DNA of 12,919 nt from Promethearchaeota archaeon (GCA_011364975.1 RDOE01000088.1:1-12919); one strand, 5' to 3'. Shown: positions 3,019-4,730, counted from the stretch's first letter. Numbers and translations are program-made. The notes: generated from the sequence alone by a model not told the origin.

Positions 3019-3798
3019 ATGAAGATAAAAGGAATTATTTTTGATTTTGGCTTCACTCTATTCTCTTTTGAAAATCCTTCTGTCGAGAAATATTATGAGT
3101 GTTTTAAAAAGGGACTACTGAAATCTATTGAGAGCTTAAAACAAGAAAACATTATTTTAGAACAAGAGGAAATAATCAAAGAGTTTATAAGCATCTTTAA
3201 TAAAAAAAAGTCATCTTATTTTCGTGAATCAATAAAAACTAAAGATGAATTTCCAACTTCTCAGATTTTTAAAGAGGTAATAGAAATATTAAAAGAAAAA
3301 GGGCTTATTTTAGAGCAATCAGTTTTAAAGCAAGAATTTTTAGAAGAATTATCCGAACTCTACCACTCCTGCGAAGAAGAGGAGTGGAAACCTTATAAAG
3401 AAACAAAAAAGACCCTTGAATCGCTCTCATCACACAAAACGTTAAAAATAGGGTTAATCTCGAATCATCCAAACCATAAAACTGTCAAGAATATGCTTAA
3501 AAACAACGATATGAAAAAATATTTCAATGCTATTGTAACCTCAGCAAAATTCGGAAAAAGGAAGCCTAATCGTGATATCTTTTTCCATACTTTGAAAAAA
3601 ATGGGATTAAATGAAGAAGATGCGAAAGATTGCTTAATGGTTGGAGATGAAGCTGCAGATGCTGTTGGTGCGTACAAGATAGGTATGAAAGTTCTTCTTA
3701 AAAAGCGAGAATATGAGTTTCCATTCGAAACAAAGATTGATATTCCTAACTTAGTTAAAATAACATCAGTCAGTGAAGTATTAGATTATATATACTGA
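3019..3798 (+). CDS. HAD-superfamily hydrolase, subfamily IA
   Basis: Motif I IIFDFGFTL, motif II LISN, motif III KRKP and motif IV MVGDEAADAVGA, with a large helical cap region. Confidence 0.9.
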   Translation: MKIKGIIFDFGFTLFSFENPSVEKYYECFKKGLLKSIESLKQENIILEQEEIIKEFISIFNKKKSSYFRESIKTKDEFPTSQIFKEVIEILKEKGLILEQSVLKQEFLEELSELYHSCEEEEWKPYKETKKTLESLSSHKTLKIGLISNHPNHKTVKNMLKNNDMKKYFNAIVTSAKFGKRKPNRDIFFHTLKKMGLNEEDAKDCLMVGDEAADAVGAYKIGMKVLLKKREYEFPFETKIDIPNLVKITSVSEVLDYIY

Positions 3799-3852
3799 AC
3801 TTAATGTAAAGATACTAAGTCCCTTAGATAAACTAAATAGCCCAAGGGGGAT

Positions 3853-3882
3853 TTGTTCAATTTTGAAGATATTTCAAAGGTT
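3853..3882 (-). other. 30-nt non-canonical tRNA intron in the T-loop, best fit position 58/59
   Basis: 37 nt separate GGGGG from CCCCC, and removing 30 nt restores TTCAAAT. A BHB-like fold has central helix GTTC/GAAC, bulges AA|A and AA|A, and intron hairpin TTTGAA/TTCAAA. The exact junction is ambiguous by 1-2 nt because of A-runs. Confidence 0.85.
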
Positions 3883-3903
3883 TTGAACCCCCGATATCTG
3901 GCT

Positions 3904-3930
3904 GTTTACTTTAGTTTTAATTAACTAAAT
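3904..3930 (-). other. 27-nt tRNA intron at canonical position 37/38 with strict bulge-helix-bulge
   Basis: The intron is ATTTAGTTAATTAAAACTAAAGTAAAC. Central helix TTGC/GTAA (4 bp, one G-U), 3-nt bulges GG|A and AC|A, intron hairpin TTTAGTT/AACTAAA (7 bp), outer helix CTGGC/GCCAG. Confidence 0.93.
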
Positions 3931-3968
3931 CCGCAAGCCAGCGCCCTATCCAGCTGGACCATTGGGCT

Positions 3969-4058
3969 TTATGGTTGATATTATTCTATCGTGAACAATA
4001 CTTAAAATATTTTATTTCTCTTATTAGTATTAAAATTCTTTATTTAATATTTTTGATT
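3969..4058. promoter_or_regulatory. Divergent promoter region between tRNA-Arg and the second HAD gene
   Basis: 90-bp very AT-rich gap between head-to-head genes. A minus-strand TTTTAAGTA at 4006-3998, preceded by A-rich sequence, is TATA/BRE-like and lies 30-38 nt upstream of the tRNA. Confidence 0.4.
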
Positions 4059-4730
4059 ATGTTTGAAAATTACGGTGTAATTTTTGATCTAGATGGTGTA
4101 ATAGTAGATACAGGTCCAATTCACTATGAAAGTTGGGTAAAGTTAGCAGAAGAAATAGGAGTTAAGTTTACAACACAATTCTTTGAAAAAACCTTTGGAC
4201 AACAATCCACAGCAATAACTCGTAAATTGGTTGGTACTAACGTTGATCAAGAACTTGTGGAAAAATGGGCTGATCTTAAAGAGCTTTATTATAGAGAGAT
4301 GGTAAAGGATAAATTACATCCTTTACCGGGTGTTATAAAATTATTAAATGAGCTTTATGATAAAGAATTTAAACTGGCGGTTGCGTCGAGCGGTCCTCTT
4401 GAAAATGTTGAATTATCATTAAATACTCTTAATATTCATGATTATTTTAACGTAATAACAACCGCAGCGGATGTTGTTAGGGGTAAACCTGAACCGGATG
4501 TATTTTTAATAACTGCACAAAAACTTAATGTGGAACCAAAGAATTGTATTGTTATAGAAGATGCTCCTGTAGGAGTTACTGCTGCTAAAAAAGCAAATAT
4601 GAAAGTTATAGCTTTACGCACTACACATTGCAATGCAGACCTATTAAATGCAGATATTACTGCTCCAGACTTAAGTTTCATTACACTGAGAACGATTATT
4701 AAATTACTGAACATAAAACATAACCTATAA
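4059..4730 (+). CDS. HAD-superfamily phosphatase, subfamily IA (beta-phosphoglucomutase/CbbY-like)
   Basis: VIFDLDGVIVDT, AVASSG, RGKPEPDVF and VIEDAPVGVTAA. I moved the start from the TTG at 3975 to the ATG at 4059 (MFENYGVIFD), which puts motif I at the N-terminus and leaves room for the tRNA promoter. Confidence 0.92.
   Translation: MFENYGVIFDLDGVIVDTGPIHYESWVKLAEEIGVKFTTQFFEKTFGQQSTAITRKLVGTNVDQELVEKWADLKELYYREMVKDKLHPLPGVIKLLNELYDKEFKLAVASSGPLENVELSLNTLNIHDYFNVITTAADVVRGKPEPDVFLITAQKLNVEPKNCIVIEDAPVGVTAAKKANMKVIALRTTHCNADLLNADITAPDLSFITLRTIIKLLNIKHNL

Follow-up and report, generated by a model that had tools for sequence, protein, structure and literature searches.

Between two HAD-family hydrolase genes of a Promethearchaeota archaeon lies an apparent intergenic gap. 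The question that it raises is whether this gap holds a working tRNA gene and, if it does, how the transcript could be spliced. The gap belongs to a stretch of DNA of 12,919 nucleotides (GCA_011364975.1, RDOE01000088.1:1-12919), the whole of which is referred to here as the window; all coordinates are counted from its first letter. An initial annotation had proposed that the minus strand of the gap hides a tRNA-Arg(GCG) gene, which would fold into a complete 74-nt cloverleaf once a 27-nt intron and a 30-nt intron are removed. Its coordinates and lengths proved exact, both by ARAGORN and by a check of the pairs. We describe below the anatomy of the gene, its orthologues in related genomes and the splicing enzymes of the genome, and weigh the readings that these observations allow.

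Anatomy of the gene and its flanks

The whole tRNA-Arg(GCG) gene occupies 3838..3968 on the minus strand and measures 131 nt from acceptor position 1, the 5' end at 3968, to discriminator A73, the 3' end at 3838; the CCA is not encoded. It is made up of three exons and two introns, all on the minus strand. Exon 1 (3931..3968, 38 nt) carries the 5' strand of the acceptor stem, the D arm, the 5' strand of the anticodon stem and the anticodon loop to position 37, including the anticodon GCG. Intron 1 (3904..3930, 27 nt) follows at the canonical 37/38 site and has a strict hBHBh' motif. Exon 2 (3883..3903, 21 nt) contains position 38, the 3' strand of the anticodon stem, the variable region, the 5' strand of the T stem and T-loop positions 54-58. 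Intron 2 (3853..3882, 30 nt) interrupts the T-loop, at 58/59 by BHB geometry, and exon 3 (3838..3852, 15 nt) supplies T-loop positions 59-60, the 3' strands of the T stem and acceptor stem, and the discriminator A.

In the spliced 74-nt form all 21 cloverleaf pairs are formed (20 Watson-Crick and one G-U), and each of the 13 conserved positions checked is present, namely U8, A14, G18, G19, A20, A21, U33, G53, U54, U55, C56, A58 and C61. The features expected of an arginine tRNA, the anticodon GCG together with A20 and A73, are also in place; A20 and C35 are what we take to be Arg identity elements. The first pair of the acceptor stem is A1-U72, as it is in the closest orthologues, a pair that is unusual for archaeal elongator tRNAs.

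Upstream of the gene, a block of 33 nt (3988..4020, minus strand) can be read directly from the sequence. It includes an A/T-rich TATA-like box, TATTTTAA, at 4002-4009, which lies downstream of a purine-rich stretch and has its end 33 nt ahead of tRNA position 1. The block recurs before the orthologues L002, L003, L004 and L006 and is a putative archaeal promoter. Just 3' of the discriminator, the sequence of the minus strand has a T-rich tract (3828..3837), a possible archaeal terminator.

Both flanking genes lie on the plus strand. The HAD-family hydrolase gene at 3019..3798 matches Pfam HAD_2 with an E value of 7.3e-23, and the second HAD-family gene (4059..4730) is recognised by a Pfam match and by its orthologues. 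In a mechanical listing this second gene appears as an ORF at 3975-4730 that opens at a TTG (3975), with the Pfam match beginning at its residue 35, while the ATG at 4059 gives a HAD protein that begins MFENYGVIFDLDG, which is HAD motif I. The true start is probably ATG 4059 rather than TTG 3975, because the latter would overlap the tRNA promoter region and the Pfam match starts from residue 35.

Recognition by tRNA finders

It had been suggested that standard finders may miss genes of this kind, and the unspliced gene is indeed missed both by ARAGORN, which called no tRNA with intron search either off or on, and by Rfam, which gave no match in the window at gathering scores. Under a permissive threshold, the Rfam tRNA model aligned to the unspliced gene over positions 8-63 only and scored 17.5 bits, where the cut-off is 29. 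This partial alignment treats the anticodon-loop insert as an insertion of 30 nt and then meets the T-loop insert.

Removing the introns in a script changes the outcome. When gene positions 39-65 and 30 nt of the T-loop were removed, the T-loop block being cut in six equivalent ways, ARAGORN called tRNA-Arg(gcg) of 74 nt in 6/6 of the double-spliced constructs. With the T-loop insert alone removed, it called tRNA-Arg(gcg) with i(39,27) in all six, and only with intron search; with the anticodon intron alone removed, nothing was called. For the whole genome, which is 99% complete, ARAGORN with intron search listed 22 tRNA genes, and the Rfam tRNA model gave 21 matches that pass its cut-off and 33 when E values up to 10 were allowed. 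One of the ARAGORN calls is a tRNA-His on contig C129 with an "intron" of 622 nt; this could reflect a large insert or two pieces wrongly joined.

Splice motifs

The window gene was scanned for BHB motifs with a 4-bp central helix between two 3-nt bulges. At intron 1 the scan found the central helix TTGC/GTAA, paired at 4/4 positions with one G-U, between the bulges GGA and ACA. The outer helix consists of the 5 bp of the anticodon stem, and the inner helix has 7 bp. The 27-nt intron at 37/38 is thereby bounded by a strict BHB, just as first proposed.

At intron 2 the central helix is formed by G53-T54-T55-C56 and the intron tetramer GAAC, with 4/4 pairs and the bulges AAA and AAA. Cuts at all positions from 55/56 to 59/60 would yield an identical mature sequence, and a cut after 58 is the sole register in the scan with 4/4 central pairs. 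In this register the outer helix has 4 bp and derives from a T stem whose strands are shifted by one base (G52-U60 and three G-C pairs), and the inner helix is interrupted, one pair being followed by a small internal loop and a 6-bp hairpin, TTTGAA/TTCAAA. Two other placements were considered. A strict BHB at 59/60 on the native T stem fails, with 1/4 central pairs by hand check, and is absent from the scan; at 60/61 the 3' cut would fall at the edge of a helix.

When the T-arm was folded alone, the minimum-energy structure contained the pairing of G53 with a C of the intron. With the entire precursor folded, the BHB register reached -33.4 as against -39.7 for the fold with the native stem, and is thus about 6 kcal/mol less stable. 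Judged by these modelled folds, the T-loop motif is near-canonical rather than strict or "relaxed", but would not be the ground state. The initial annotation had placed a relaxed BHB at about 58/59; the site stands, and the word "relaxed" has to be given up for a motif with a 4/4 central helix, two 3-nt bulges and a slipped T stem.

The number of motifs is by itself unremarkable. Five BHB-like motifs were observed in the 131 nt, not above the count in shuffled sequences (mean 1.3, maximum 5, n=200). Two of the five coincide exactly with the intron boundaries given by the cloverleaf. Since the count is within the range of the shuffles, the case rests on this coincidence and on the agreement of the orthologues.

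Orthologous tRNA-Arg(GCG) genes

A DNA search of 61 related genomes returned tRNA-Arg(GCG) genes of other species. The orthologue of the upstream HAD gene (3019..3798) adjoins tRNA-Arg(GCG) in 11 of the 14 related loci, and orthologues of the downstream HAD gene (4059..4730), at 59-68% identity, are present in 6 of the 14. Fifteen Arg-GCG genes, the window's included, were aligned without the use of splice motifs to an intron-less reference, L009. Relative to this syntenic reference the window gene has exactly two inserts, one of 27 nt after reference position 39 and one of 30 nt in the T-loop, and it is identical at 64 of 75 exon positions.

Against these conserved exons the inserts form a mosaic. 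The T-loop insert, 30 nt long and in the same place, is found in 9 of the 15 genes and absent from 6. An insert in the anticodon loop occurs in 3/15, with a length of 27 nt in the window's gene, and is absent from 12/15; L004 and L006 have an unrelated 18-nt insert in place of intron 1, and L002, L003 and L020 have none there. Five genes have an insert in the D arm, three have one in the variable region, and three are without any intron. The intron-less orthologues align over their full length to the Rfam tRNA model, at 58 (L009), 53.9 and 52.4 bits. An orthologue with the T-loop insert alone gave a partial alignment of 33 bits, and three other insert-bearing orthologues gave no Rfam tRNA match at the gathering score.

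The syntenic Arg-GCG genes L002-L030 thus show inserts in the D-loop, anticodon loop, variable region and T-loop in various combinations, or none. With five insert positions, the 15 syntenic genes make up a compact natural series for the study of intron turnover and for dating gain and loss. The series L002-L030 also has two types of acceptor stem, A1-U72 and G1-C72.

T-loop introns in other tRNA genes

A scan of the window's genome for further tRNAs of this kind, as the initial annotation had advised, found at least 8 genes with T-loop inserts of 30-33 nt. They came from 214 candidates that combine a T-arm with an acceptor stem, 29 of which were called as tRNA after T-loop inserts had been removed in the script; 8 of these 29 have such an insert. 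They are Arg-GCG, Arg-CCT, Lys-TTT, Asp-GTC, Leu-GAG, Trp-CCA and two genes with unreliable anticodon calls. One round of BHB-bounded removal solved another 6 out of 182 candidates, with ambiguous anticodons.

From the window's genome and related genomes, 23 distinct T-loop inserts were compared, each read in a register, chosen by eye, that gives an acceptor strand of 7 nt. A 4/4 central helix is formed in 19 of the 23 (17 at 58/59 and 2 at 59/60), and a 3/4 helix in the other four. In 17/23 the intron presents a tetramer GRRY, complementary to G53-C56, at 4 nt from C61, within an insert that is otherwise variable. Genomes were also searched with a pattern that marks the 58/59 architecture and accepts only T stems with GGG/CCC at their end. 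It was matched in 27/27 congeners and in 65 of 68 genomes of the window genome's family, whose genomes gave 0 matches to a reversed-pattern control. Of seven genomes in the neighbouring family, which holds the closed genomes, one has the marker, as do 135/301 across the phylum sample. Its occurrence in other Asgard families is patchy (28/76, 5/5, 4/4 and 8/11, and 0/28 in another).

Splicing enzymes and lineage

The genome encodes two proteins that match PF01974 (EndA), on contigs C126 (102.9 bits) and C191 (66 bits); the ORFs are of 200 aa (alpha) and 205 aa (beta-like). RtcB is also encoded (553.7 bits). Two or more PF01974 matches are present in 36 of 41 related genomes, and the other five, with one match each, are 71-92% complete.

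In the alpha protein Y141, H149 and K180 are invariant among 18 alpha sequences. The beta-like protein, for which the EndA of M. jannaschii is closest, has Phe and Ser at the positions of the M. jannaschii catalytic Tyr and His and keeps the Lys. Tyr, His and Lys are presumably the catalytic residues of EndA. The alpha protein also aligns to chain B of the Aeropyrum pernix structure 3p1z with an E value of 1.6e-35. K44 and R46 of A. pernix, in a loop specific to Crenarchaea, have K58 and R60 as their aligned counterparts, and K58 and P59 are invariant in the 18 sequences.

In A. pernix EndA, K44 is needed for cleavage, the loop gives broad specificity and the loop-bearing enzyme cuts non-canonical sites, according to the available text of PMC3241643. 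As far as the accessible record of the A. pernix enzyme goes (PDB 3p1z, 3ajv; PMC3241643), alpha keeps the catalytic His, which is changed in 3ajv, and the His-to-Ala difference between 3p1z and 3ajv supports the assignment of this residue. By alignment, then, the EndA of this genome is of the two-paralogue (alpha-beta)2 pattern with a specificity loop. A broad-specificity splicing system had been predicted for the genome, and the enzyme type found, a putatively catalytic alpha with the K44 equivalent and a beta without the Tyr and His, agrees with that prediction.

The lineage was placed through EndA alpha. Most of its 51 nearest named relatives, at 66-83% identity, are metagenome-assembled genomes that bear the names Promethearchaeota or Promethearchaeia archaeon, and a few are filed under other Asgard names or as "uncultured archaeon". 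These relatives bear out the earlier description of the genome as Asgard-like. Identity to EndA alpha of Candidatus Harpocratesius repetitus is 51%. Promethearchaeota, an NCBI phylum of the kingdom Promethearchaeati, is what we take to be the former Lokiarchaeota. The GluRS encoded in the window is archaeal according to the protein atlas, which gives no lineage for it, and no confirmed relative of it was found in the genome contigs searched.

Copy number, codon usage and independent DNA

An anticodon stem-loop pattern for GCG gave by itself 391 matches in the genome, most of them random, and these were intersected with the 214 T-arm-plus-acceptor candidates. Only at the window locus is the GCG anticodon stem-loop credible; the six other candidate regions that contain a GCG match extend over 290-405 nt. 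A second Arg-GCG copy was not found by BLAST of the genome either. Another intact Arg-GCG gene, which together with a missing spliced product would have refuted the initial annotation, was thus found neither among the 214 candidates nor by BLAST. The search called for an intact TTCRA start of the T-loop, a perfect 7-bp acceptor stem and U8, and tRNA-Arg(GCG) is apparently single in the assembly under these criteria, which a more disrupted or unassembled copy would escape. In 951 long ORFs, 3,153 of 18,217 Arg codons (17%) are CGT or CGC. For annotation, this means that the sole decoder of CGU and CGC found in the genome stays invisible unless introns in the T-loop and at other non-canonical sites are modelled.

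The gene is also covered by contigs of two other studies. They match it throughout 3838-3968, without an indel or joint, and one of these independent contigs spans all 601 bases compared. Two further sequencing runs yielded nothing that aligned, which is not to be taken as a sign of absence. Among the listed runs that contain this DNA, none is registered as RNA.

A probable functional gene and the alternatives

We consider it very probable that 3838..3968 is a functional two-intron tRNA-Arg(GCG) gene of a Lokiarchaeial (Asgard) genome, whose introns would be cut by EndA and whose exons would be joined by RtcB. Transcription of the minus strand would give a precursor of some 131 nt, extended by a leader and a trailer. 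Both introns would then be cut out by the (alpha-beta)2 EndA with its specificity loop. Intron 1 would offer the enzyme a strict BHB at 37/38, and intron 2 a BHB at 58/59 in which G53-T54-Psi55-C56 is the exon half, GAAC the intron half and the slipped T stem the outer helix; RtcB would join the exons. That the gene is transcribed, and its transcript cut at just these bonds and ligated, is what we infer from the sequences of the gene and of the enzymes.

The gene could instead be a decaying pseudogene, a former tRNA-Arg(GCG) that was disabled by insertions and yields no working tRNA, and this we regard as quite improbable. Such a relic might be expected to go unrecognised by standard tools in its unspliced form, as this gene does, and to lack a textbook motif in the T-loop. 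It would hardly be expected to retain 21/21 stem pairs and 13/13 checked positions, to have BHB motifs bounding both inserts, or to share the same class of insert with positional orthologues of many species and with at least 8 tRNA genes of the genome. Conservation of the exons, with inserts coming and going at motif-bounded sites, gives these inserts the look of introns and not of decay. Moreover, the block upstream is shared with orthologous loci, the DNA of the two other studies shows the gene unaltered, and no other Arg-GCG gene was found, yet CGU and CGC account for 17% of the Arg codons.

Less probable still is that the gene works and that the 30 nt in its T-loop are something other than an EndA intron, being either kept as an expansion or removed without BHB cleavage. 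It is true that the T-loop BHB forms only with the T stem slipped and that its inner helix is weak. An insert of 30 nt between 58 and 59, if kept, would destroy the fold of the T-loop and its contact with the D-loop, and retention is in this respect incompatible with the T-loop structure of tRNA. An insert of some other nature would not explain why GRRY stands at a fixed 4 nt from C61 in 17 of 23 inserts, or why 6 of the 15 orthologues do without the T-loop insert. The genome furthermore has the loop-bearing type of EndA, which in A. pernix cuts non-canonical sites (PMC3241643, as available).

A chance cloverleaf in AT-rich intergenic DNA, or an artefact of assembly, is refuted as far as sequence evidence can refute it, for although the count of BHB-like motifs taken alone is within the shuffle range, 64/75 exon positions match a syntenic intron-less tRNA scoring 58 bits, Rfam aligns positions 8-63 even of the unspliced gene at 17.5 bits, and the contigs of two other studies agree without an indel.

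Comparison with known systems

Several introns per tRNA gene, many of them non-canonical, have been described in Atabeyarchaeia and Freyarchaeia (PMC11291895, accessible text), and 90 Asgard genomes have been catalogued for tRNA introns (bioRxiv 10.64898/2026.10.13.758758). An Asgard (alpha-beta)2 EndA with an L1 loop, together with suspected hidden disrupted tRNAs, was reported in 2018 (PMC5829648, in the sections available). As in the window's gene, the Asgard multi-intron tRNAs of PMC11291895 and bioRxiv 10.64898/2026.10.13.758758 have BHB introns at 37/38 and in the T-arm, and the same studies, in their available text, describe genes missed by software, inserts that vary between close relatives and two EndA paralogues. 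The initial annotation had referred such tRNAs mainly to other archaea, and any claim to novelty on that ground falls: multi-intron and T-arm-intron Asgard tRNAs, the failure of software to find them and the (alpha-beta)2 EndA with its L1 loop can all be found in the accessible parts of PMC11291895, PMC5829648 and bioRxiv 10.64898/2026.10.13.758758. A two-intron tRNA is ordinary for Asgard archaea, and the gene will not surprise a specialist.

The differences are of lineage and of detail. To judge from their available text, the published Asgard studies centre on Jordiarchaeia and Atabeyarchaeia, whereas the window genome is Lokiarchaeial. Neither "Lokiarch" nor "Prometh" appears in the main text of bioRxiv 10.64898/2026.10.13.758758, whose supplementary tables may include the lineage, and our full-text searches returned no paper on this gene or on T-loop introns in Lokiarchaeia specifically. 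That preprint reports, in its available text, almost no intron families common to different tRNA types in its focal lineages, whereas the window lineage has some similarity across isotypes. The present results extend the published Asgard picture of many BHB introns, rapid gain and loss, and a loop-bearing EndA to a large Lokiarchaeial family.

ARMAN-2 likewise has T-loop introns that use T-arm nucleotides in the BHB, at 59/60 in pre-tRNA-Cys (hBH) and at 53/54 and 59/60 in pre-tRNA-Pro (PMC3239211, accessible text). Its EndA is of the epsilon2 type and its sites are 53/54 and 59/60, in contrast to the (alpha-beta)2 type and mostly 58/59 sites of the window lineage. The T-loop BHB of the window, unlike that of ARMAN-2 as far as the available text describes it, has a G53-C56 central helix and a slipped T stem.

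For Thermoproteales, tRNAs with several introns and the transposition of introns were reportedly described by Sugahara in 2008 and Fujishima in 2010. In the accounts available, Thermoproteales share with the window lineage non-canonical BHB introns at many positions and an (alpha-beta)2 EndA with a specificity loop. They belong to a different phylum, and the window genome is that of a mesophilic sediment organism. The same accounts give related introns in different tRNA genes of Thermoproteales, whereas similarity across isotypes in the window lineage is limited and only suggestive.

Likeness of introns between tRNA types

The core of the window's T-loop intron is 0.75 identical to that of a Val-CAC T-loop intron in another species, a likeness at least as close as that to its own orthologue in genome G014. 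Within each of two other genomes, G030 and G134, the T-loop intron cores of a Thr-like tRNA and of a tRNA with the anticodon TAT are 0.75-0.79 identical. The paired loci are G030:C25 (L142) and G030:C34 (L025) in the one, and G134:C36 (L144) and G134:C45 (L145) in the other, and they differ in acceptor stems and anticodons. Overall, 9 of 913 cross-isotype pairs reach 0.75, against 0 among shuffles (n=30, maximum 0.71). The likeness is only suggestive, since the pairs are not independent of one another and many of the loci were fetched by their likeness to the window. Within the window's genome the best cross-isotype alignment of introns has a low score, and a transposing family of the Thermoproteales type would call for about 80% likeness or more across tRNA types. 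The cores shared within G030 and within G134 are suggestive of an intron, or a T-arm, having been copied between tRNA genes.

Tentatively, and with rather more doubt than confidence, these cores might be read as traces of a portable class of T-loop introns that has moved between tRNA types (Arg-GCG and Val-CAC; Thr-like and TAT) in the Lokiarchaeial family. An element of about 30 nt ending in GAAY and three further bases would have been moved by gene conversion of the T-arm or by transposition. Because its exon half would be the universal G53-T54-Psi55-C56, the same element could be spliced from any tRNA. If this were true, it would amount to spread in the style of Thermoproteales, of a kind that the 90-genome Asgard catalogue did not find in its focal lineages, and intron gain might be observed in this lineage while it is under way.

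Some further observations concern the Val-CAC and TAT genes. In the Val-CAC genes L005, L008 and L012, of other species, CCA directly follows the discriminator; in the Val-CAC gene of the window's own genome it is not encoded. L146 (G134:C108) and L147 (G134:C149) are near-identical Val-CAC genes, each with inserts in the variable region and the T-loop; they stem either from a duplication of recent date or from two strains that were binned together. Reading of AUA by UAU is rare in archaea. In L018, L025, L028 and L145 the anticodon loop reads CTTATAA, with the anticodon TAT, and is followed by a long insert; if the introns are rightly placed, these genes would encode a tRNA that reads AUA with UAU.
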